Origin: a virus
Taxonomy: Duplodnaviria; Caudoviricetes
Length of the DNA stretch: 64,000 bases
Direction: 5' to 3' (one strand)
IMG/VR virus record: IMGVR_UViG_3300025534_000006
Span: 21,781 to 85,780 of that record
Positions within the stretch are counted from its first letter, which is position 1; every line of letters starts with the position of its first letter. This document shows, one piece after another, positions 8,125 to 63,975 of this stretch. The notes under the pieces are model-generated. The model made no database searches. It saw nothing but the letters and a program-made list of their open reading frames with translations, and was not told where the DNA came from. The position numbers and the translations under genes are program-made.

Positions 8125-8706
8125 ATGTACGCGCATGAAATTCTCCGTCTGGACGAACTGCGGCCATCCACGGCCAAGGAACTCACCCGGACCAACTGGT
8201 CCGGGCATGAGGCGGTCGCGGAATGGCTCACCCGGCACGGTTTTCGGCAGATCGGCAGCGGCTCCTACGGTTCGGTCTGGTCCGATGAATCCCGCGCCGT
8301 GGTGAAGGTTTTCCACCGCGATCCCTGCTATGCCCGGTTCGCCGCGTACTGCCGCGACCACCGTGGCAACCCCCACCTGCCCAAGATCAGCCGTGTGTTC
8401 CCGCTGCCGCAGGACGGCGGCGTGGTCTTTATGGAACGGCTGGTGCCGCTCCCCGATGCGGTCGCCACGACATGGGCGCGCCTGATCAATACCTACAAGG
8501 ATTTCCTGACGTTCAGGGGCTACATGCCGCCTGCGAAGCTGCAAGGCGACGCCGAAGCCTTTGCCCGGCGCTACCCCGCCTTGGCGCGCACCGTGCGCGA
8601 GATCGTGGACCTGTTCGAGGATGGCGGGTGCCTGTTCGACATCCATGAGGACAATATCATGTCCCGCGACGGCACCGTCGTCATCATCGATCCGGTGATC
8701 GAGTAG
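8125..8706 (+). CDS. Ser/Thr protein-kinase-fold protein
   Basis: IGSGSYGSV glycine loop, VVK lysine, DIHEDN catalytic loop, IIDP. Confidence 0.85.
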   Translation: MYAHEILRLDELRPSTAKELTRTNWSGHEAVAEWLTRHGFRQIGSGSYGSVWSDESRAVVKVFHRDPCYARFAAYCRDHRGNPHLPKISRVFPLPQDGGVVFMERLVPLPDAVATTWARLINTYKDFLTFRGYMPPAKLQGDAEAFARRYPALARTVREIVDLFEDGGCLFDIHEDNIMSRDGTVVIIDPVIE

Positions 8707-17158: not shown

Positions 17159-17292
17159 GCGAACGGATATGGACGGAGTTTAAGCGCCCCTTCCAATGCC
17201 GATGCGGCCTCCATGATCGGCGGGATCACGGAGGCCGCATGGTGCGCATGGTCTCAAAGGATTGGCCGGAAGCCCCGGCCAGTCCCGTCAGG

Positions 17293-20066: not shown

Positions 20067-20519
20067 TCAGTCGCCGATGCCGGTGTATCCACGGCCCGAC
20101 CACTGCCATTCGCGGAGCACGACATTCGCGGTCGGGGGATAGGGTACGACTACGCCGTAATGGTAGTTCAATGCCCACACCGTGTCAATGCGGAGAACCA
20201 GACCGGATTCCTGCGCCGCCCGGTCGATGAACACCCGAAGCGTCATCCGTTTCGGGTCCCAGCCGGACAGACGGAGGGTCTCGGCCATCCCGATGGCGAC
20301 CGACTGGCGGCACCACTGCCCGGCATGGATCATCTCCCAGATCGTCGGCCACGTGTCCGGCGCCTCGGAATCGTAGGCGAGCTTTACCAGCGGAGCCTTG
20401 GCCCAATACGCGGCCACCGCGTCCAGTTGCTCGGCCTCCGTCATGTCCGGCAGGGCGCGGCGGAACGCCTTCCAGTCGTTCAGCCTCTCGGCTGGCGACA
20501 GGAGAAAGGGATTGATCAT
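20067..20519 (-). CDS. Conserved phage hypothetical protein (PTIWEMI motif)
   Basis: In series with the upstream structural gene. Confidence 0.7.
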   Translation of the reverse strand: MINPFLLSPAERLNDWKAFRRALPDMTEAEQLDAVAAYWAKAPLVKLAYDSEAPDTWPTIWEMIHAGQWCRQSVAIGMAETLRLSGWDPKRMTLRVFIDRAAQESGLVLRIDTVWALNYHYGVVVPYPPTANVVLREWQWSGRGYTGIGD

Positions 20520-20542
20520 GGCATGGCTCCCGCGATGAGCCG

Positions 20543-21661
20543 TCAGGCGGTCACGGTGGTCTGCAACTCGGTGCGGGCGACGGTCACGGAGACCGGCCCA
20601 ATGGTGGCGGTCGCTCGCAGCGTGACGGTTCCGCTGACGGCGCTGACCGAGAAGGTCGCGAGTTCGTTGCCGCCGGTCGTGAGGAAACCGTACTCGGTCA
20701 GGTGCGCATTGGTCCCGTCGGTCACGAGCAGCAATTCGCTGACCTGCGTCCCGTGCTGCCCACCATAGACGGTGATAACGTACTTGGCGGACGCACTGAT
20801 CAGGTTATTGTCGCCAAAGGAGTCGATCACCGTGTCGGCGCCGCTGACAAACAGCGTGTTGGTGACAGCCCCGTTGTCGGTGTCGTTCTCGGGTGCCCGC
20901 GCGGGCGCACGAGCGTAGTTCAGAGGCGTGTAGGCGACATTGTTCGGGCTGGCACGCTCGACGCGGAAGCACATGATGGGATTGATCGGCAGCAGGTTGC
21001 GATACTGGATGACGACGGTCTGGGCACCGCCATCGGCCACGACACGGGCACGGAAGGCAATGTCGCCATATGCCGATGTCGCGTCGGTGGGATCATCCGC
21101 ATTGCCGAGGTCCACGCGCCGCAGCATCGTGGCCTCGTCGGTCAGCAGCGGGGTGCTCGCCCCGCCGGGATGCAGCACGGTAAGGCGGCCGGTGCGGATC
21201 GGCGTATTGCCATCGAACAGGAAATACGTGACCTGTGCGCTGGTCAGCACGCCGACCAGCGCGATCTTGAAGGGCACCTCGCCGACGCCGTTCTCCTCGG
21301 CCAAGGTCAACGTGCGCCAGTCGGTGTCGTCATGGGGGTCGGTGTTGATGAGCGCATTCGTGGTCATGAAGGCCGTTTCCACGATGCGGTTGTAGCCGTC
21401 GAATGCCCGGCGCAGCAGCAGCGTCGAATTCTCGGTCAGGACCTCGATGTTCTGGTAGGGAAAGGTCGCGCGCTTGAAATTGGCGTCACCTTCCTGTGGA
21501 TCATGGCCGATGAACACCCGGCCGGTATCGGTCGTGAAGGCGATTTCGCCGATGTCGAGGCCGGGCGAGAACTCAAGCGGGCTGGTCGAGGTGGGCGCGC
21601 CGGGCAGATCGCGCTCTGGTCCGCGTCGAAGCTGAATCTTGCTGATGTGAATCTGCGCCAT
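20543..21661 (-). CDS. Virion structural protein
   Basis: ISKIQLRRG...LDIGEIAFTTDTGRVFIG N-terminus; TAAATA at 21693-21698. Confidence 0.75.
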   Translation of the reverse strand: MAQIHISKIQLRRGPERDLPGAPTSTSPLEFSPGLDIGEIAFTTDTGRVFIGHDPQEGDANFKRATFPYQNIEVLTENSTLLLRRAFDGYNRIVETAFMTTNALINTDPHDDTDWRTLTLAEENGVGEVPFKIALVGVLTSAQVTYFLFDGNTPIRTGRLTVLHPGGASTPLLTDEATMLRRVDLGNADDPTDATSAYGDIAFRARVVADGGAQTVVIQYRNLLPINPIMCFRVERASPNNVAYTPLNYARAPARAPENDTDNGAVTNTLFVSGADTVIDSFGDNNLISASAKYVITVYGGQHGTQVSELLLVTDGTNAHLTEYGFLTTGGNELATFSVSAVSGTVTLRATATIGPVSVTVARTELQTTVTA

Positions 21662-22518: not shown

Positions 22519-23301
22519 TCAGGATCGAAGGGCCTTGATCAGCCAGTCGTAGAAATCCTTGACCGTGTTGATGCCGTCCCGGCCCTTGATGATGATGGAG
22601 GCCGGGTCGAACACGAAATAGGTGTGGCCGTCCATGGTTCCGGCGGCTCGCCGGGTGGCGGTATCCTCTTTGAAGCGCACGCCCGTGTAGCCGCGCGCCT
22701 TGAGAGCATCGACGAATTCCGGGCGGTCCAGCAGCCACCACCAGCGATGGATGGGAATGCGAGTGTATTTCTGGCCGTCACGGGCAAGCAGGTCGAGACC
22801 GAGGCGGACGATATCACGCGGTGGGCTGGCGGCGTCGAGGATATGAGTGGCGTCCACGTAACAGGTCAGGAGTCGGTAGTTGGCGCTGCCATCTGCACGG
22901 TTCGCGCCGAAGTAGTGCGCCAACGGCTTCGAATCGGTGAGAAAGATGCCCTGATTGTCCACGCTGTAGGTCGCGCCCAAGAAGCCGAGGCTGCGCTGTC
23001 CCTTGGTCAGTCGGAAGCCGTCCTTCTGGATGAGGTCGGCGACCTCGTGCGGGGTTCCGTGGTAGAGTTCGATGTAGCCGGGGCCGGGCCGGTGGGAGGC
23101 CGCGATAACGGCCTGCATCACGTCGTTCAGGTCTTTGACCTGATCACGCGGGACCTTCTTGATGGACGCCATGAAGGCGTCGAAAGAGGAGAGGTCCATG
23201 CCCCGCGTCAGGGCGTGAAGATCGGCACCGGGCGGTACCGGGATGGTCGAGCCAGACAACGCCCGCTCGACCAACGCGATGTAATACGCAAGGTGCCGCA
23301 T
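22519..23301 (-). CDS. ADP-ribosyltransferase-fold protein with leader
   Basis: Start MRHLAYYIALVE; LYHGT, GIFLTD, YF, GYTGV, YFVFDP. Confidence 0.7.
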   Translation of the reverse strand: MRHLAYYIALVERALSGSTIPVPPGADLHALTRGMDLSSFDAFMASIKKVPRDQVKDLNDVMQAVIAASHRPGPGYIELYHGTPHEVADLIQKDGFRLTKGQRSLGFLGATYSVDNQGIFLTDSKPLAHYFGANRADGSANYRLLTCYVDATHILDAASPPRDIVRLGLDLLARDGQKYTRIPIHRWWWLLDRPEFVDALKARGYTGVRFKEDTATRRAAGTMDGHTYFVFDPASIIIKGRDGINTVKDFYDWLIKALRS

Positions 23302-23302
23302 A

Positions 23303-23896
23303 TCAGGCCGGGCGCTGAGTTCCGGGCGCGAAATCGAGGCGCAGGATGTTAATGGGCGACCCGGCCACGTGTGTGATCTCGCGCTCCTCCTCCCACCAGA
23401 ACATAGCACGGGCGAGAGAGGTGGTCCAATCCACATTCTCATTACGAACCTGAGCGTAGAGAATGTGGCCGCCGCGATGGGCGGTGTGTGGGTTGGGCTC
23501 GGCGCCATAGGACCAATGCACCCCGAGTGGTCTCGCTAGGTCGGCCGTTTTCGTGAGCCGCCGGGTGATCGGAATCACGTCTAATTTGGACGCCTCTGCA
23601 AGTGCGCGCCGGGCATAGGTGATCAGTGGCCCAAGATACTCCGCGACCATGGCAACCTGATGGTCCGTAAGCTCCTCGAAGGTCTGGGGCAGTTGCGGAT
23701 CAAGCGGCTCGCCATGTTCGTCCTCGCCCCAGTCGATTTGGTCCCAATGGCCTTCCAGCACGTCGCGTAGGTCATCGACCTCCACATAGGCGCGCACCAC
23801 GTCCTCGACAGTGACTAGGTCGAGAGATTTGTGTGCCATTGTGCGGCGGGTGACCGCTTCGACTAGATCAATCAGACTCCGGAGGTCGTGCGTCAC
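23303..23896 (-). CDS. Leader-tagged protein, probable ART-like fold
   Basis: MTHDLRSLIDLVEA; ITR...LGVHWS...EEEREI. Confidence 0.55.
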   Translation of the reverse strand: MTHDLRSLIDLVEAVTRRTMAHKSLDLVTVEDVVRAYVEVDDLRDVLEGHWDQIDWGEDEHGEPLDPQLPQTFEELTDHQVAMVAEYLGPLITYARRALAEASKLDVIPITRRLTKTADLARPLGVHWSYGAEPNPHTAHRGGHILYAQVRNENVDWTTSLARAMFWWEEEREITHVAGSPINILRLDFAPGTQRPA

Positions 23897-24283: not shown

Positions 24284-25486
24284 TTACTCCTTCGCCTCGG
24301 GGGCCTTGCCCCATACCATCGAGGCCACGAGCTTCTTCGAGGCGATCACCCCGTCGATCTTCTTCTTGGTCTCTTTGGCTCCTTTGACGTTCCCAGCCTT
24401 GCGCTGCGCCTGATAGTCCTTCACCCAGCCTGCAAGGCCGTTCTCCAACTCCGCCTTGGTCCGAGCCTCGGCATCGTTGCTTTCGGCCACGGGCTGCGGC
24501 GCCTTCTGGGGCGTCCCACGACCGACCGGACCCTTGGGGGCCGGAGCCTGCTCCGGCGCCGCCTGCACACCCTTCTGACCTTGCTGGGAGGGCTGTCCGG
24601 CGGGCTTCGGGGGAGCCGGAGGGGTGGCGGGCTTCGCACCGGCCTGCGGCTGCTTCCGGCCCTGCGGTGCAGCCTTCTGCGCCTGCTGGGTAGCCCGCTC
24701 GGCCTCCGCACGGGCACGCATATCGGCCGGGCTGAGCGGCTTCTGAGGCTGAGCCTCCGTTACCTTCTTGCGGCACGCCTTTTTCGCCTCGCGCACGATG
24801 CTCACCACATCGGCGGCGTCGATGGCATAGGCGGTGGCGGTATGGCGGAGCGCCTTGGCAGCATCGCGGGTCTCGGCCAGCGCCTTACGGAACGTACCCA
24901 GCACCAGCGCGTCCGGGTTCTTGGACTCGCGCAGCGCCTTGATGTTGCGCTCGATCAGGCGCTTGCCACGGGGCAGGGCGCTCTCCTTCCGTGCGCGACC
25001 GGCCGCGTTCTGCGCCGCGCCCAGTACGTCATCCTCGGCGTTGCCAGCCATATCCGGCTCGGGCAGTTCGACATCGCCATCACCGGGCGGCGCCGGAAGC
25101 TCGTTGCCCTCCGCATCCGCATCGGCCTCTGGCGCGGGAGGCTCGGCGTCCATCGCATCGCCGTCCATCGCCATGTCGGAGGTGGCGCCGCCATTCACGG
25201 CCCGCTCAAGGCGCGCGATCTCGTTGCCAATGGCATCCTTGGCACCCTGAATGGCCTGCACGAGTTCGTCGATTTTCGTGGAGGTGACCTGCGAGAAGCT
25301 GTTGGCGGCGGAGGGGCCGAATGCGTCCTTGAGGTGGTCCTGCATCGGCATGATGTCGTCGGCCTTCACCTTGGCGAGGTCCTCGGCCATATCCTGAAGT
25401 TTGTCGGCAATCGCCTTGGCATTCAGTACGAGTTCGGACCGCTCAAGCGTGGACTCGATCAGTCGAGCCATGCGATTTTTGGTCAT
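24284..25486 (-). CDS. Prohead core/scaffold-like protein
   Basis: Coiled coil plus acidic/Pro-rich segments; many x-x-E|S/A sites (LIES, LRES, VREA, VTEA, VAES). Confidence 0.55.
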   Translation of the reverse strand: MTKNRMARLIESTLERSELVLNAKAIADKLQDMAEDLAKVKADDIMPMQDHLKDAFGPSAANSFSQVTSTKIDELVQAIQGAKDAIGNEIARLERAVNGGATSDMAMDGDAMDAEPPAPEADADAEGNELPAPPGDGDVELPEPDMAGNAEDDVLGAAQNAAGRARKESALPRGKRLIERNIKALRESKNPDALVLGTFRKALAETRDAAKALRHTATAYAIDAADVVSIVREAKKACRKKVTEAQPQKPLSPADMRARAEAERATQQAQKAAPQGRKQPQAGAKPATPPAPPKPAGQPSQQGQKGVQAAPEQAPAPKGPVGRGTPQKAPQPVAESNDAEARTKAELENGLAGWVKDYQAQRKAGNVKGAKETKKKIDGVIASKKLVASMVWGKAPEAKE

Positions 25487-26092: not shown

Positions 26093-26740
26093 TCAGTAGG
26101 AGCGGGACCCGGCGAGCTTGAAAACCCGGTTGCGGGCGGCGATGGCCTTCCGCTGCGCGGCGCCGTAGCGGTCCTCATAGATCGGAAAGCGCGGGCTGTC
26201 GGGATTCCGCGTCATCAGGCGCTTGAAATGGATCGCGTCGCCAAGGGCGGAGGCATAATCCTGCTCGGCGGCCAGCAGGTCCAATGCAGCCTTCGAATTG
26301 ACCTGTCCGCCCTCATTGAGGATGCGGGCGAGGCCATGCGCGGCCTCGTAGAGCGTGAGGTCGGCGGCGATACGCTCGCTTTCACCGACGCGGCCGACAT
26401 CATAGAGCTTGCGGTTGCCCTCGCCCCGGACGCGGATTTCCCACGGACCGATCCGGGCGCCCTGCTCGGTTTCCTCGGTGACCAACGCCTCGCGCAGTTC
26501 ACGGTCGTAGCTTGCCCGGCTGGCGAGCGCCATAGCCGTGCCATCGGTGGCCGCCGTGAACCGCTCAAGGATGGCCTTCATGGCCGCAACTTCCGGCTTG
26601 GCCGAGAGGTCTGCCTCCCCGGACGGGATGGCGGGGGCGGCAACGGGATCGTCTGACGCCTCGGAGGCTTCCGGCATGGGGCAGCCCTCAAGGATTGCCT
26701 TGAGACGGGCCATCTCATTGACTTCACGAGGGTCAATCAT
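26093..26740 (-). CDS. Late hypothetical (head-assembly cluster)
   Basis: Start overlaps upstream stop; ILEG and LNEG sites. Confidence 0.65.
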   Translation of the reverse strand: MIDPREVNEMARLKAILEGCPMPEASEASDDPVAAPAIPSGEADLSAKPEVAAMKAILERFTAATDGTAMALASRASYDRELREALVTEETEQGARIGPWEIRVRGEGNRKLYDVGRVGESERIAADLTLYEAAHGLARILNEGGQVNSKAALDLLAAEQDYASALGDAIHFKRLMTRNPDSPRFPIYEDRYGAAQRKAIAARNRVFKLAGSRSY

Positions 26741-26967
26741 CGCTCTCTCCAAATGTCTTTCACCGAGTTAACGCGATAAAATATCCGGCCCTCCTGATCG
26801 CGCCTGCGGTGCAGGAGCCCACGCGACACCATGTGGCGGGCAACCTCGCGCTCCCGCTCATCCAGTGATGCCTGTGCGACGCCGTCACCTTCGGCGCGGG
26901 ACAGCAGGTCCCGTTCCTCGGAGCTTACAGGCAAACGCAGTCCGGATGCAATCTCGTGATACCGCAT
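26737..26967 (-). CDS. Small winged-helix-like hypothetical protein
   Basis: MRYHEI...LDEREREVARHMVSRGLL. Confidence 0.6.
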   Translation of the reverse strand: MRYHEIASGLRLPVSSEERDLLSRAEGDGVAQASLDEREREVARHMVSRGLLHRRRDQEGRIFYRVNSVKDIWRER

Positions 26968-31271: not shown

Positions 31272-31556
31272 TTAGTCCCCCTCGGTATGCCGACGGATCA
31301 GGTTCTCGACCATGTCGGCGGCGCGCTGCATTCCCAGTTCGACGCCAAGAGCCTGCTCGCTGTCCTCATTCTCGGTGTGTGAGCGAAGCTTGAAAGCCAA
31401 ATCGCGCAGGTCGGCTATGATCGGCGGCTCGGACACCGGGAGTGCTTCATCCGATGTATCCTGATCCTCAAGGACGCATTCGCTCGCCGAGGGCAGAAGT
31501 TCCTCGGCGAGCAAGATGTACCCACGCATTTCGGTGATGAAGGTATTGTCGTTCAT
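31272..31556 (-). CDS. Late hypothetical protein
   Basis: TAAATA 31578-31583. Confidence 0.6.
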   Translation of the reverse strand: MNDNTFITEMRGYILLAEELLPSASECVLEDQDTSDEALPVSEPPIIADLRDLAFKLRSHTENEDSEQALGVELGMQRAADMVENLIRRHTEGD

Positions 31557-31593
31557 CGCGCGATCCTGTGTCCGCCTTATTTAGGCGGATGAT

Positions 31594-47589: not shown

Positions 47590-49059
47590 ATGCGTATCCA
47601 CAATTTCCGTGTGGGGTTCGCGACGAACTCCTCGTCCTCGCACAGCGTCATCCTGCTGCCGCCCGACCTGATCGGTAAGGTCTCGGGGATCGCTACCCAT
47701 GATGACGGTCACTATGGCTGGGACTTCTTCCGCCTCGTCTCTGAGGAGGAGAAGCTGCGCTACCTCGCGGCGCAGTTCTTCGCGAACTACATCCGCGACA
47801 AGCACGCCATCGCCGACATCGTCGAGAAGCTCGACGCCGAGGTCTCGGGTTTCAAGGACCGTTATGCCGAGGTAGCGACCAACGCAGAGGACATATATGA
47901 CTGCGACGATTCGCTGCCCTCCGTGGACCACCAGTCGGTCCTCCGACTGCCGGACAACTACGATCCGGCGTTTGCAGAGGCGCTGATCCGCTTCTTCAAG
48001 AGCCCGCGCGTGGTGGTTCTGGGCGGTAACGACAATTCGGACGGCAACGATCATATCAAGCCGGACGGGTCGGAGGAGATCAGGTTCCTCAACAACCTGC
48101 GTGACTGCTATGACGGGTATCGCGCGCGCCAAGACGGCGCCTTCTGGACGCTGTTCTCCACGAGGGATGGCACCAAGATAAGGTTCAGCTTCGACCGCGA
48201 CGACCTGAACGCCGAGGGATATGTCAAGGCGAGCGCCCCGGAACTCGTGGACGTGAAAATCACCGACTGGTGCGACAAAGGGTGCGCCTTCTGTTACCAG
48301 TCCTCCACAAAGGCCGGTGTCCATGCGCCACTCGACCGCATCGAGCGCATCGTGAAGATGCTCGCCGAGATGAAGGTGTTCGAGGTCGCCATCGGTGGCG
48401 GCGAACCGACGGCGCATCCCGAGTTCGCGCGCATCCTGCGGATGTTCCATGAGGCCGGGATCACCCCGAACTTCACCACCTTCTCGAACAAGTGGCTGGT
48501 GAACGCGGGCCTCGTGCAGACGGTGCGCGAGACGGTCGGTGGCATCGGCGTCTCCTGCCTGAGCGCCAAGGACCTCGGTCTGCTCAACGAGATCAAGGCC
48601 ACACTCAGCGGTGGCGCCCGTTGGCATGACGGCCCGCAGATCACGGCGCAGCATGTTCTCGGGTCGGTCCCGCTCTACGTAACCGGCAACCTGCTGACAG
48701 CCGCATTCAAGGAGCGGCACCCGCTGCTGTTGCTGGGCTACAAGCCGGTCGGTTTCGGAGCGAACCACGAACGGCACGACACCGGGGAGGTCGAAACCTT
48801 CCTCAGGATGGCCGTCTACTCGGAGGAGAACCGGTGGGTGCGCCTGTCCGTAGACACGGCGCTGGTTGACCGGTTCCCGACTCTCACGGAGACGCTCGGT
48901 GTGCCGGATGCGCTGGTGACCAGCCCCGAGGGCAAATTCTCCTGCTATATCGATGCCGTGGAGAACCTGATGGGGCCGTCGAGCTACATCCAGAAGGTCG
49001 ATATGGACCCGCTGGTGCTGGATACCGAAGCGTTCAAGGCGATCTTCGCCCGGTACTGA
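47590..49059 (+). CDS. Radical SAM protein fused to an N-terminal TNSSSxH domain
   Basis: CDKGCAFCY, GGGEPT, NFTT; N-terminal GFATNSSSSHS. Confidence 0.85.
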   Translation: MRIHNFRVGFATNSSSSHSVILLPPDLIGKVSGIATHDDGHYGWDFFRLVSEEEKLRYLAAQFFANYIRDKHAIADIVEKLDAEVSGFKDRYAEVATNAEDIYDCDDSLPSVDHQSVLRLPDNYDPAFAEALIRFFKSPRVVVLGGNDNSDGNDHIKPDGSEEIRFLNNLRDCYDGYRARQDGAFWTLFSTRDGTKIRFSFDRDDLNAEGYVKASAPELVDVKITDWCDKGCAFCYQSSTKAGVHAPLDRIERIVKMLAEMKVFEVAIGGGEPTAHPEFARILRMFHEAGITPNFTTFSNKWLVNAGLVQTVRETVGGIGVSCLSAKDLGLLNEIKATLSGGARWHDGPQITAQHVLGSVPLYVTGNLLTAAFKERHPLLLLGYKPVGFGANHERHDTGEVETFLRMAVYSEENRWVRLSVDTALVDRFPTLTETLGVPDALVTSPEGKFSCYIDAVENLMGPSSYIQKVDMDPLVLDTEAFKAIFARY

Positions 49060-49525: not shown

Positions 49526-50164
49526 TCAGCGCGAGAAGCGTACCCCGTATTGGGCGAGGAGGCTGGTCTCGACAGGCTTGCCTCCCACCGTGGGTGAAAG
49601 CTGCATTTCGGGCGTCGAGGGTCCGCTCAGCCCTTCCCTGTAGGCACGGATGGCATCCTTGTAGCCGCTCCGGCTGACCTTGCCGAGGCTGGTGGTCATC
49701 GTGGCGATGCGCGGGTCCAGTCGCTCGGAAAACACCGTATCGAGCCAGACGCCACCGGTCTCTGGCAGCCAGAGCAGATGCCCCGTCCTGATCTCAATGG
49801 AGCCGCGACCCATGCTGAGCCATGTCGAGCCAGCCTCCCAACGGCGCATCTCTCCCAAGGGATCGGGCGCGAAACCCTGAACGACTTTGCCGTCCAGATG
49901 CGCGATCATGAGAAGTTCGGCGTCGGCATCCCGGTATTTTTGCGCCAGTCGCTTGAGTGCCGTGCGGTACCATGGCAGCGGCACCTCGGCAGCGTCGATC
50001 TCGGCATCGGTCATCTCGTGAACGCGTTCGACCAGCGCCGCCACTGCGGGACGGCGCTTGGCCTCGTATTCGAGCATGGAAAGCAGGTCGCGGAACATCA
50101 GGAAAGCCAATCCACTTTCGTCGGCACGTCCGAGCGCATTTCGACAATGACTTCCTGTTGCCAA
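49526..50164 (-). CDS. Late hypothetical protein with leader-like MFRDLLSMLE
   Basis: TAAATA 50198-50203; alternative ATG at 50098. Confidence 0.6.
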   Translation of the reverse strand: MATGSHCRNALGRADESGLAFLMFRDLLSMLEYEAKRRPAVAALVERVHEMTDAEIDAAEVPLPWYRTALKRLAQKYRDADAELLMIAHLDGKVVQGFAPDPLGEMRRWEAGSTWLSMGRGSIEIRTGHLLWLPETGGVWLDTVFSERLDPRIATMTTSLGKVSRSGYKDAIRAYREGLSGPSTPEMQLSPTVGGKPVETSLLAQYGVRFSR

Positions 50165-58964: not shown

Positions 58965-61262
58965 TCAGGCCCACACGCTTCGGCATTCCGTCTCGTCGAT
59001 TTCAAACCGGACATCCGGATCGCCATCCATCCACCGTTTCCATGTTGTCTCGGAAGCAAGTACGATATGCCCGCACTCCACGACGGGGATCGTCTCGCGC
59101 CCGGCCCTCGCATACGCTGCCAACCGGTGTCCACCATCATAAAAGTGGCCATTGGCGATCAGGATCGGGTCAAAATCGAAGGCCGGGTTGCGTCGCAGCA
59201 TTTCGGCGTACCGCTCCACCGCCTTGTTGCTGTTCTCCCGTGCCATGGAATGGACGAGATCGGAAACGCGGGCACGTCCGACCAAGACCTCGGGCGGATG
59301 CACAAGCCCGCAAAGATTGGCCCATGCATCCTCTGCCGTATAGCCAGTCTCGATGAAGTAGGGGTGACGCTCGGCGAGGTTTTCGCAGATGTCGGTCTGC
59401 ACTTCCGTCGGCAGATCATCGAAGGGAATCCGACGGAAACCACCCTCGCCTTTCCCTTCTGTCACGGTACTTTCGCGTTCAGCATTCTCCTCGGTGTCCG
59501 GTTCACGGGTCACCGACCGGATAACGGACGGGTCCAGTACCGCGTAGGTGGTGGAAGGATCGCCATGCTCGAAATTGACGATGTTCCGGATCACCACGCC
59601 TTTGTCACCACGCTCACGAGCCCTTGCCAGAATACGCTGCATGATGTCCGGATCGTAGATCGGATCACCACCAGCCAGACGGGCATAGTTCACCGAGGGA
59701 AAGCCCGCGACATCCACTTGAACCTTATGGACATAGCCCCAATGCTCCGCATCCTCGCGGCTGTCGGTCAGAAAAATCGCATTTTCGGCGCCTCCGGGCA
59801 GGCGCAGCCCATTCGACAGATCAGCGAGGCTTCCGTGATACGCCGTAATCACGTTTCCGCGCCCGGTCCCTTCATGGAGATGGCGACCCGTCACTACCTC
59901 GGCGCTTTCCAGCGGCAACGGCTTCGTCATATGAACCAGCACTTCGTCCTGATGATGCCAGTCACCGAGCGCCCTGATTGCCGACCGCACCTCCCGGTTC
60001 CGCGACGCTTTCAGATCAGCCATACCGAATGGAATCCGTTCGGGATCGGGCTTCGTACTGACCAGCAGCGGTATGCCCGACCGGGCTGAATGCTCCGCAA
60101 AGTCCAAGGCAGCCTCCCGGCTCCCCGAGAACGACTGATACGGGTATTGCGAATTCGGCGGAAGCATCTTGCTGCGAATGATCTTCACCGCCGTTGATTT
60201 CGGCACGAAGATCACCCGGTAGAGGAGCGGCTTCGCTACGGCGCGATGGTTGCCGACGGCTTGCCCGATGATGGAGAACGCCTCCTCCACGGTCATGGCC
60301 TCGGTCTCCGGCCACGACCAGTCGGGATCGCGCATGGAACCGCTGATCCAGCGTTGCAGCCACCAGAGGGCATATTGCAGCTTCTTCGAGTCCACCGAGG
60401 TCGTCTTGTGCCCGGTGCTCTCGGCCATGCGGCTTCGCACCCGCCGCATGATCTCCCTCGCCCGCTTGCTTGGTTTGCGCGTCAGAAAGCCACGGGCGCG
60501 GCCATGTTCGTATGGCGGCACCTCGCCGACTGAGGTGTACTGACTTGCCGTTGGGTCGAGGATTGCACCGGTCGTCGTGTTCCGAAGCCACCAGTGGACC
60601 ACACCATTGCGGTCTCGGGCGCTGTACGGACGCCATGGGCTATCGAACCCACCGAGCATGTGCCAAAGGGCTTCGCTCGCCACATAGCAATGACCGTAGG
60701 TGGGATTGTCGGCGGACCACTTCTTCCGAAAAGCTGGCTGGAGCAGTTCCGGGCTCAGCGACGCCTTGACGGACGATACGAGATCGGGGGCGATATCCTG
60801 TCCGGCGTTTTCCGTGACGCCCCGGCGCTGTCTTGGATAACGGATCATGAGGCACTCCTCGGAATCCTCATCATCCAAATCGCCGTTGCCGTTCTGCAAA
60901 ATCTCGAAACCGAAGTCCTGATAGTAGGATATGAGCTTCGGCGAGTTAGCAAAGACAGTCAATTTGATCGTGACCCGGTACCGGTCAGCAAGATCGGCAA
61001 GGGCTTGCATGACCTGTGCTCCCGCCCCCGGCGGCGCGTCGGGACGGCGCTCGATATACGTCAAGTGGACTACTTTGGCGCCGTTCCCCACGGTGCCACC
61101 GGTTTCCAGTTCAATGTCAACATTCAGCCTGCGTGCGATTGGCTGGATGGCACGGATAACCTCTAGAGCCGGTACCGCGCGTTTTGCAGGCTTCTGGGTT
61201 GCCGCCGTCTTGGGCGCAGAGCGGGTCTCGGCGAGATCGATCCAGAGGCGGAGAGAGGACAT
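58965..61262 (-). CDS. Five-domain polyvalent protein (GNAT, papain-like, two ART-like, ParB/Srx-like)
   Basis: Leader MSSLRLWIDLAE; GAGAQVM..YYQDFGF; HCYVAS/VHWW/LDPTASQY; LYR/SFS/QDE; YHGS/IFLTD; DGGHRL; TAAATA 61291-61296. Confidence 0.75.
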   Translation of the reverse strand: MSSLRLWIDLAETRSAPKTAATQKPAKRAVPALEVIRAIQPIARRLNVDIELETGGTVGNGAKVVHLTYIERRPDAPPGAGAQVMQALADLADRYRVTIKLTVFANSPKLISYYQDFGFEILQNGNGDLDDEDSEECLMIRYPRQRRGVTENAGQDIAPDLVSSVKASLSPELLQPAFRKKWSADNPTYGHCYVASEALWHMLGGFDSPWRPYSARDRNGVVHWWLRNTTTGAILDPTASQYTSVGEVPPYEHGRARGFLTRKPSKRAREIMRRVRSRMAESTGHKTTSVDSKKLQYALWWLQRWISGSMRDPDWSWPETEAMTVEEAFSIIGQAVGNHRAVAKPLLYRVIFVPKSTAVKIIRSKMLPPNSQYPYQSFSGSREAALDFAEHSARSGIPLLVSTKPDPERIPFGMADLKASRNREVRSAIRALGDWHHQDEVLVHMTKPLPLESAEVVTGRHLHEGTGRGNVITAYHGSLADLSNGLRLPGGAENAIFLTDSREDAEHWGYVHKVQVDVAGFPSVNYARLAGGDPIYDPDIMQRILARARERGDKGVVIRNIVNFEHGDPSTTYAVLDPSVIRSVTREPDTEENAERESTVTEGKGEGGFRRIPFDDLPTEVQTDICENLAERHPYFIETGYTAEDAWANLCGLVHPPEVLVGRARVSDLVHSMARENSNKAVERYAEMLRRNPAFDFDPILIANGHFYDGGHRLAAYARAGRETIPVVECGHIVLASETTWKRWMDGDPDVRFEIDETECRSVWA

Positions 61263-61444
61263 GGCGTGGCTGTTCCGAAGCTTGGCATCGTATTTATCGA
61301 TCTGCCCGGCAGTATCAGAGCCAAGCTTCGGGGGTGGTCAATCAACCACTCCCCTGCCGATGTTAATTCCTATCTCCCAGCGCGGTGCTGCGCAGCGGCG
61401 AGGCCGGATCGACCGGCCATCGCTGCTTGGAAGGTCTGGACGCT

Positions 61445-61882: not shown

Positions 61883-62464
61883 TTACGGCACGCCCCGGCC
61901 CTCTCGTTCATCAAAGTCACTATGACCCACCGCTTCGATGCGGCGCCAAGCAAGCGTGTCGAAATACCGCGACGTTTTGGCGAAGCGATGCTCGGGGGCC
62001 TCGCATGGCTCATATCCGGCCATCGCAAGCTCTTGGGAGAACTTCGCGGCCATTTTCTGATAGAGCCGGAAGCGGTTCGTGTTCTCCTTGCTGGCGGAGA
62101 GCATGATCAACTCCGGCTTGACCTTGGTGATGAATTCCCGGAACACGGCGATGGCGGTGGCGAAAACGCGATACCCCTTCCCTCCCAAGTTCAGGACCTT
62201 GGTGCCAGCGAAGTAGTCGCTGACGGGGCCGAAGCTGAGGTCATACCAATTGCCGTCGCGCTGGGGATCATCGGGATGCGGGAAGCCGGTCGAGAGGTCC
62301 GCCTTGGCGAAATACTCCTCGTCGCCAACCTTGAAGATCGCCTCCCAGAGGTCTTTCTTGCGGTGTATCCACCGGTATGGGAATGGCGTTTCGAAGCTTT
62401 CGGAAATGCCCGAGCGTTCGGCGCTCTCAATGATGTCGATGTAGTGGCGAAGGGTATGGGTCAT
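61883..62464 (-). CDS. Leader-tagged protein, possibly divergent GNAT-like
   Basis: MTHTLRHYIDIIES; VFATAIAVFREFI...RFRLYQKM. Confidence 0.6.
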   Translation of the reverse strand: MTHTLRHYIDIIESAERSGISESFETPFPYRWIHRKKDLWEAIFKVGDEEYFAKADLSTGFPHPDDPQRDGNWYDLSFGPVSDYFAGTKVLNLGGKGYRVFATAIAVFREFITKVKPELIMLSASKENTNRFRLYQKMAAKFSQELAMAGYEPCEAPEHRFAKTSRYFDTLAWRRIEAVGHSDFDEREGRGVP

Positions 62465-63210
62465 CTTTGGGTGTCAATGCTGAAATCTCGTCTCCCCCGA
62501 CGCAGCAGCGTGTTGTTCGGGTCTGGGTCCTCGTAGACCACCAAGGGCAAGCCGAGACGCTCGCAGGTCTCGCGCACAGCCTGAGCCTGCTGGTCATCTT
62601 CGGCCGGGTTCACCAGCAGGTAGACCTTGACCAGATAGGACCGCAAAGGCGTGATGGACCCGATGCAGAACTCCTCCGCCTCCATGCGGGTGTTGCGCTC
62701 GCCATGAGTGCGCCGCATGGGTTCGAAATCATCCGGATCGTAGTGCAGCACACGGGTTGGCTTGTTCGGCTTATGCGTTCCGTCCATGGAGAACGGCACG
62801 AGCTTGTAGCGCGCTGCCAAGGCTGCCTGATCCAATTCAAACACCACACGGCCCCATACAGTGGCAAGATTCCATGAGCGGGTCAGGGATACGCCTATCA
62901 CCGGCTTTCCGCCGATCATCTGCGGGCGCTTGGCGTTTGCGGCAATGCGGTCCTGCTTGATGATGCTGATGGCGCGGTCATATGTCGTGGCGTGATAGAG
63001 CGGAGCGTCCCTGCCCTCCATCAACGCCATGCATTCGCGCCCGGCTGTCATGGCACCCGACGCTTGGATTGCCTCCCGACGGGCTTCGCTCGTGCCGTGG
63101 TAGACGCGGCGCTCGGGTGCCACATATGGCGACCACGCTGGGCCTGCGCCGCGCCCCCAAGCCTCATTGAGGCGCTCAACAAGGTTGATCCATAGACGAA
63201 GGGAGGTCAT
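62461..63210 (-). CDS. Leader-tagged ART-fold protein
   Basis: MTSLRLWINLVE; VYHGT stub, then LYHAT/GVSLTRS/EAEE. Confidence 0.7.
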   Translation of the reverse strand: MTSLRLWINLVERLNEAWGRGAGPAWSPYVAPERRVYHGTSEARREAIQASGAMTAGRECMALMEGRDAPLYHATTYDRAISIIKQDRIAANAKRPQMIGGKPVIGVSLTRSWNLATVWGRVVFELDQAALAARYKLVPFSMDGTHKPNKPTRVLHYDPDDFEPMRRTHGERNTRMEAEEFCIGSITPLRSYLVKVYLLVNPAEDDQQAQAVRETCERLGLPLVVYEDPDPNNTLLRRGRRDFSIDTQR

Positions 63211-63941
63211 GCCAGCCCCTCCGTGATCTCCGGACTGTCGGGAGAGAACGTCCCTTTGTTGGCGATGGCCGACTTGATCTGGTGCGGATAGAACGCGATC
63301 CACCAGTCGGTAAGGCCGCCGCCGCGAGTACCAGCGTCGGCGAAGGTGTCCTTGAGCAGGATGCCATCATAGCCTTCGCTGATCGCCTGCTCGCGGAACT
63401 CCTCCACCATGGCTTCCCATTCGCGGCTCGATTGCTTCACCCGTCGCCCGCCGCTGATGGCGCGCAGCAATCGGTCGTAGGCATCGGCGCGGTCCATCTG
63501 CTCGACATGCCGGTTATAGGCGGACCAGTTCCGCGAGCTTGCATGGGCGTCAAGGGCCTTCTGATCCTCGATCCATACCGGTTCGCTGTTGAACACGAGG
63601 GGACGTTTGATCGAGAGATAGCATGGCATGACGTTGCCGCCGGGCGTGATGCGGTCATGCTCCGGGTCGGCATGGCCCATGTAGCCAGCGAAATAGGAGG
63701 GAGTTTTGGGGTTGGTGTCGAACCAGAAGCCAAGGCGGTTGGTGCCGTAGGCCCGCCGCCTTTCGCTGTCCAGTTTGAAATGTCCGAAGTTCTCTAACGT
63801 GCCATGGTAAACGACCAATGGCTTGCCGTGGGCGTCCACGACCTTGCTGCCGGAGAACCACCGCTTGAATTCCGGGGTCTCGGTGATGCTCGGAGCAGCA
63901 GCACGTTCAACGAGATTGATCCATTGGCGTAGGGTAGTCAC
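63207..63941 (-). CDS. Leader-tagged ART-fold protein (polyvalent-protein type)
   Basis: MTTLRQWINLVE; TPEFKRWF.GSKVVD..GKPLVVYHGT, GFWF, YDGI, QIKSA..N.GTFS. Confidence 0.8.
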   Translation of the reverse strand: MTTLRQWINLVERAAAPSITETPEFKRWFSGSKVVDAHGKPLVVYHGTLENFGHFKLDSERRRAYGTNRLGFWFDTNPKTPSYFAGYMGHADPEHDRITPGGNVMPCYLSIKRPLVFNSEPVWIEDQKALDAHASSRNWSAYNRHVEQMDRADAYDRLLRAISGGRRVKQSSREWEAMVEEFREQAISEGYDGILLKDTFADAGTRGGGLTDWWIAFYPHQIKSAIANKGTFSPDSPEITEGLA

Positions 63942-63969
63942 GGCAAGGCGGGCTCCGGGGTGTTTTGGT

Positions 63970-63975
63970 TATTTA
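63970..63975 (-). promoter_or_regulatory. TAAATA late promoter for the three-gene effector operon
   Basis: 28 nt upstream of GTG 63941. Confidence 0.65.

Follow-up and report, generated by a model that had tools for sequence, protein, structure and literature searches.

A short leader at the N-terminus of a varied set of late proteins in a huge phage is, in our reading, a capsid-targeting propeptide of the kind that phage T4 uses to load proteins into its head. From comparison of sequences and analogy with T4, we give this reading a probability of roughly three in four. The original prediction had proposed that the leader sends an enzyme set into the capsid, and the comparison supports it, as every prediction that can be tested from sequence came out as required. 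The window analyzed here is the final 64 kb of an 85,780-b virus record (IMGVR_UViG_3300025534_000006), and coordinates refer to the window unless the record is named. CheckV puts the completeness of the record at 17%, which implies a genome of about 0.5 Mb, and a contig of 484,642 b that encodes proteins identical to those of the record at 62461 to 63210, 61883 to 62464, and 23303 to 23896 is probably the full genome of the phage. The record has a G+C content of about 62% and carries the majority of its genes on the minus strand, and a megablast search gave no match of the region to cultured phages. A complete relative is the 578-kb IMG/VR genome G001, which has 39 of 121 genes in common with the record, with a mean amino acid identity of 47% and with the gene order kept. 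Atu_ph07, for which a virion proteome exists, turned out to be too distant to have this leader set, with a single head-protein homolog in common. The window also contains a radical-SAM or Fe-S oxidoreductase-like gene (phrog_16999; 47590 to 49059, plus strand) that has no counterpart in G001.

The leader follows the consensus LRxWIxLVE, which begins after 1 to 4 residues, and ends in [LIM]-x-E in all copies, so that P3 is L, I, or M; its length ranges from 9 to 18 residues. In a six-frame translation of the window the pattern has 8 matches, against 0.03 in 200 residue shuffles, and in the whole record it has 13 matches, against 0.06 in shuffles. All 13 lie within a few residues of a start codon, on the minus strand, in ORFs of at least 75 open codons. 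A nine-column profile built from the leader copies ranks these N-termini above all other six-frame positions in the record; this strict profile was used because a loose score for an amphipathic N-terminus ending in E was too unspecific (7 to 8% of internal windows pass). In total, at least 14 genes are tagged in a record that represents about 17% of the genome. The six leaders originally placed at 63941, 63210, 62464, 61262, 23896, and 23301 are all present at those starts. Five more were found in the rest of the record, at record positions 17162, 19476, 20133, 20752, and 21212, and the window itself has looser versions at 25486, at about 26720, and at 8125. The scan of relatives that had been suggested together with that of the record gave a related form, MR-[DE]-[LFY]-I-x-[IL]-[VM]-E, on at least 17 G001 genes, which are the top profile matches and are all N-terminal. 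In orthologous cargo pairs, the leader is kept in both the record and G001.

The codons differ among the leader copies, and in the DNA upstream of the genes only a TAAATA motif is conserved, which indicates that selection on the leader acts at the level of the peptide. An origin by duplication or at the nucleotide level was ruled out, as the codons differ and the similarity stops at the Glu. When the leader is removed, the majority of cargo pairs show no BLAST similarity. The tagged ORFs had been described as otherwise unrelated and mostly of ADP-ribosyltransferase (ART) folds. The first part holds for most pairs beyond the leader, but several of the proteins are distant members of the ART superfamily; the second part is roughly right, as several cargoes have ART folds, but others are non-ART proteins or proteins of unassigned fold. 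The leader could also have been equally frequent on early genes, an outcome that was named beforehand as counting against a role in packaging. Instead, it is absent from the replication and nucleotide metabolism genes of the record (helicase, primase, and ribonucleotide reductase).

The clearest arrangement of tagged genes is found at 61883 to 63975 on the minus strand, where a TAAATA late-type promoter core (63970 to 63975) stands 34 nt before the first of three genes that overlap by 4 nt at each stop and start, each with a leader of 12 or 13 residues. The first gene (63207 to 63941; GTG start; 244 amino acids, of which residues 1 to 12 are the leader) encodes a stand-alone ART-PolyVal domain (Pfam PF18760; E value, 2.4e-21), and its ortholog in G001 is 45% identical and keeps the leader. 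The start of the second gene (62461 to 63210) overlaps the stop of the first by 4 nt. Its product of 249 amino acids consists of the leader (residues 1 to 12), an insert modelled with low confidence, and an ART core that begins at GRDAPLYH. This protein had no Pfam match, but its AlphaFold model (21 homologs; pLDDT of 73 overall and above 90 in the core) is nearest to Tpt1/KptA and DarT, both of which are ART folds. Directly before the core there is an internal relic site, ..ALME (residues 62 to 65; window 63016 to 63027), so that the protein has two candidate cut sites, one in its own leader and one after the poorly modelled insert. The third gene (61883 to 62464) encodes a non-ART protein of 193 amino acids with a 13-residue leader and weak matches to DUF6934 and phrog_16075. 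Here as well, a second site, I-S-E, lies between the leader and the conserved core, directly before the core.

Several more tagged genes are spread over the window. Downstream of the operon, a TAAATA site (61291 to 61296, minus strand) stands 34 nt before the gene for a multi-module protein of 765 amino acids (58965 to 61262, minus strand), the leader of which occupies residues 1 to 12. On the same strand, 31272 to 31556 encodes a small acidic protein of 94 amino acids, in which the leader lies within an 18-residue N-terminus after an 8-residue extension; a TAAATA site is found at 31578 to 31583, and the ortholog in G001 (56% identical) has retained a leader. The minus-strand gene at 23303 to 23896 (GTG start; 197 amino acids; 13-residue leader) has a product of unassigned fold, for which the ESM Atlas gave no usable lead, and its orthologs keep lineage-specific leaders. 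The adjacent gene at 22519 to 23301 (minus strand) has a weak ART-PolyVal match and is the ortholog of the C-terminal module of a 555-amino-acid G001 protein that has its own N-terminus, MRWKEILE. Outside the window, at record positions 20318 to 20752, there is a leader cargo with a weak PARP match. In the minus-strand gene at 3 to 506 the leader is reduced to ..NLVE, as had been noticed originally; the truncated copy lies at about 506, where the first codons are lost and stop codons stand directly upstream. The TAAATA site nearest to this gene is at 1623 to 1628.

Other copies are looser. MFRDLLSMLE, at the start of the gene at 49526 to 50098 (minus strand), was already ranked as weaker in the original prediction; it is present but remains a weak candidate, and the leader of its ortholog in G001 is poor. 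The gene at 26093 to 26752 (minus strand) has a looser leader after an internal Met (..MARLKAILE), and its G001 ortholog is a leader gene. On the plus strand, 8125 to 8706 encodes a Kinase-PolyVal-like protein (weak PF18762 match) with the loose leader MYAHEILRLDE and a TAAATA site 5 nt before the ATG. A head-protein homolog (phrog_14154; 24284 to 25486, minus strand) has an N-terminus that ends in L-I-E at residue 11, and an L-I-E just before the matching stretch is also present in G001 and in Atu_ph07 gp044, which is annotated in its record as a virion structural protein. The pI values of the mature cargo proteins span 4.1 to 9.1, with many of the proteins on the acidic side. Several of the acidic leader proteins could belong to the prohead core, and some of these may be degraded instead of being injected as effectors.

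The TAAATA motif occurs 19 times in the window, against an expectation of 2.46, at sites that lie 5 to 45 nt before gene starts, those of tail-fibre-like genes among them. The observation that the leader genes sit behind such sites was borne out, as each is either directly behind one or belongs to the next gene or genes of the same-strand run. In G001, a TAAATA motif is found at most 60 nt upstream of 12 of the 17 leader genes, compared to 95 of 772 genes overall, and also before the portal, protease, and sheath-like genes. Judged by these promoter motifs, the leader genes would be expressed late, together with the head genes. Many of the G001 leader genes (such as those at 462079, 468413, 472538, and 486084) have TAAATA exactly 5 nt before the ATG, which means that the late transcripts of those genes would be leaderless or nearly so, and in a second class the motif lies 25 to 35 nt upstream. 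G001 also has a second, looser class of leader, MR-x-x-E-[IL]-x-E and variants, on many further genes preceded by TAAATA (32770, 44585, 124504, 174354, 406984, 471190, 500340, 566495, and others). If these looser leaders count, G001 may tag about 40 proteins.

The head module of G001 consists of genes for a portal, an 81-amino-acid protein, an acidic protein, a 212-amino-acid Peptidase_S77 protease, a coiled-coil scaffold, and a capsid protein, which is the order of T4 genes 20-67-68-21-22-23. The scaffold is rich in [LIM]-x-E. In a MAFFT alignment, the T4 cuts in gp23 (after ..LTE, before A) and gp24 (after ..LRE, before S) align with ..LLE followed by S in the G001 capsid protein. In the capsid proteins of 39 distinct relatives, an invariant L-x-E with a variable P2 is found 16 to 17 residues upstream of a conserved block, as would be expected for a gp21-type cut site. 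Neither a Peptidase_S77 protease nor a head module was found in the 17%-complete record, and the protease of the phage is therefore deduced from its relatives. Peptidase_S77 is present in 7 of 10 other viral records that carry the tagged ART family, including all three that are at least 90% complete; the three records without it are fragments.

Our best evidence was obtained when three cargo families were traced into other phages; in each, a lineage-specific leader ending in hydrophobic-x-Glu precedes a conserved core. Homologs of the second protein of the operon occur in many metagenomes and have a leader of 6 to 14 residues that ends in hydrophobic-x-Glu directly before an invariant GRDAP. 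A profile search placed 3,035 cluster representatives in this GRDAP-core ART family. Among the best 150 of these, 117 core starts were found, with Glu at P1 in 108 and Ala in 9, and with Leu or Ile at P3 in 110; the commonest leader length in these best 150 is 9 to 10 residues. The family also includes polyproteins of up to eight tandem ART modules in 2,290 amino acids, with [LI]-x-E at each joint. The leaders sort into lineage-specific types, one of which, MKTYQEFLTE, is identical to the proven T4 tag MKTYQEFIAE at 8 of 10 positions and occurs on a contig with T4-like replication genes and with RNase H-like and glutaredoxin-like (NrdC-type) proteins. The families of the genes at 61883 to 62464 and 23303 to 23896 show the same pattern of a leader before the core. 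If the capsid-targeting reading holds, the large GRDAP-core family with its Tpt1/DarT-like fold probably represents head-packaged enzymes. A different leader was observed in Dickeya phage JA11, where at least nine genes (within gp176 to gp181 and gp188 to gp191; record positions 140001 to 190000) share the N-terminus M-x-three hydrophobic residues-S-[LI]-S-[AKN], without Glu. One of them, gp190, is an ART-PolyVal homolog, and this leader seems to be a tag particular to its lineage that ends in a different residue.

Based on the analogy with T4, we infer the steps that would follow, namely, core binding, cleavage, packaging, injection, and the effect of the cargo on the host. Late in infection, the phage would make a set of enzymes that each start with an amphipathic helix of 9 to 13 residues, among them several ART folds, a multi-module protein, a kinase-like protein, and small proteins of unassigned fold. 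The helix would dock the cargo on the scaffolding core of the assembling prohead. Once the shell is closed, a gp21-type prohead protease would cut after the Glu of the terminal [LIM]-x-E and release the cargo inside the head, from which some or all of it may enter the next host with the DNA. Points that speak against a T4-type tag are the lack of a head module in the record itself, the acidity of many cargoes, and the fact that the leader has little sequence identity with that of T4 beyond the general pattern.

Instead of sorting proteins to the capsid, the leader might be only a cleavable propeptide that holds toxic enzymes in an inactive state or flags them for processing. In the GRDAP-core ARTs, 7 residues separate the predicted cut site from the conserved His of the NAD-binding motif; a leader in this place could cover the active site, and the protease motif requires just two positions. 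However, within a lineage, five or six positions upstream of P3 are conserved, which exceeds what the motif needs in the capsid protein, and a prohead protease acts inside the prohead, where its substrate must first arrive. Moreover, in T4 a single short peptide does both the targeting and the processing. We therefore consider a propeptide without a sorting role unlikely, whereas one that controls activity may coexist with targeting. We regard as somewhat less likely again that the leader docks the protein onto some other machinery, for instance a radical-SAM maturase, or addresses it to a secretion route or an intracellular compartment. The record does encode a radical-SAM protein (window 47590 to 49059), but neither the leader-rich G001 nor G002, a near-complete genome that carries the tagged ART family, has a Radical_SAM match, and a tag recognized by such an enzyme was ruled out on this ground. 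By inspection, the leader has no hydrophobic core like that of Sec or Tat signals and it ends in Glu, and its distribution instead follows that of the S77 protease and of the late promoter.

The many cargoes with ART folds, or with ART-like His motifs shortly after the leader, could also be explained if the leader were simply the conserved first helix of one old family of paralogous ARTs and not a transferable tag. Since several cargo proteins share the ART superfamily, part of the set could indeed be old paralogs. Nevertheless, the leader is also present on non-ART proteins, similarity ends abruptly after the Glu, and orthologs in other phages have different leaders at the same junction. In addition, the same ART domain occurs without a leader in giant polyvalent proteins of other phages, where the ART-PolyVal homologs lie hundreds to thousands of residues inside the polypeptide. 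A conserved paralog helix is thus very improbable, and targeting to the capsid accounts best for the evidence that we have set out.

In T4, a 10-residue tag suffices to load foreign proteins, with residues 4 and 7 serving in targeting and residues 8 and 10 in processing (PMC9026906, PMC3012670, PMC8442874); when position 10 is changed to Asp, which makes P1 non-cleavable, a reporter still enters proheads. The internal proteins of T-even phages are a diverse set that have only the targeting sequence in common, which may be an evolutionary route to load new proteins (PMC3012670, PMC9026906). That such a tag acts as a modular address label had already been stated for these phages (PMC3012670, PMC9026906) and is not a new idea. 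The phage described here resembles T4 in having a short N-terminal peptide ending in L/I-x-E on diverse late proteins, an ADP-ribosyltransferase among the cargo classes, and relatives with a T4-type head module that includes an S77 protease. It differs in its leader consensus, which is slightly longer (LRxWIxLVE after 1 to 4 residues), and in the number of tagged genes, at least 14 in 17% of the genome compared to about eight head-internal proteins in T4. The cargo consists mostly of enzymes and is often acidic, whereas the T4 internal proteins are small and basic, and some cargo proteins carry a second site just before the core.

Effector domains that are predicted to be delivered with the DNA have also been described in the polyvalent proteins of phages and conjugative elements (Iyer et al. 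2017, PMC5512222). Two domains are shared with that system, ART-PolyVal (PF18760) above threshold and Kinase-PolyVal (PF18762) weakly, but here the domains are mostly separate genes, each with its own leader. Polyvalent proteins combine two to fifteen disparate domains per polypeptide; the protein of 63207 to 63941 has a single domain, and only the 765-amino-acid protein is multi-module. In phiKZ, 201phi2-1, and SPN3US, head propeptides are cut at S/A/G-x-E by a diverged gp21 homolog (PMC5694885). Cleavage after Glu and the loading of many proteins into the head, both of which are predicted here, are features of these phages (PMC5694885), as are paralogs with common N-termini. Most of their propeptides, however, exceed 100 residues in length and carry a small residue at P3, whereas the leaders described here are short (9 to 18 residues) with Leu, Ile, or Met at P3, as in T4. 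In the literature that we searched, such tags were not linked to huge phages except in the SPN3US work, and a survey of viral ARTs from 2022 bases its inference of packaging solely on fusions and on gene context.

The short distance of 7 residues between the ART cut site and the catalytic His motif suggested to us that the tag might also be a safety catch. The ART enzymes would then be inactive in the cell that produces them, until the head protease activates them within the capsid. It is possible, although we advance this tentatively, that huge phages of the T4 type have in this way swapped giant polyvalent proteins for dozens of effector genes that are separately tagged and separately exchangeable. 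A scan of N-termini would in that case reveal, from its genome, which effectors any such phage injects.

A useful generalization from this work is that, in a very large ART family, the core nearly always follows a gp21-type site. If the capsid-targeting reading is true, sequence alone is enough to draw up a list of the head cargo of uncultured huge phages, and the record would yield at least 14 head-cargo proteins in 86 kb, four or more of which have an ART fold. The leaders would also provide short natural tags for loading foreign proteins into the capsids of other phages. The tag-and-clip system of T4 would then be old, widespread, and scalable, and the reading offers a concrete hypothesis for the use of part of the extra coding capacity of huge phages.
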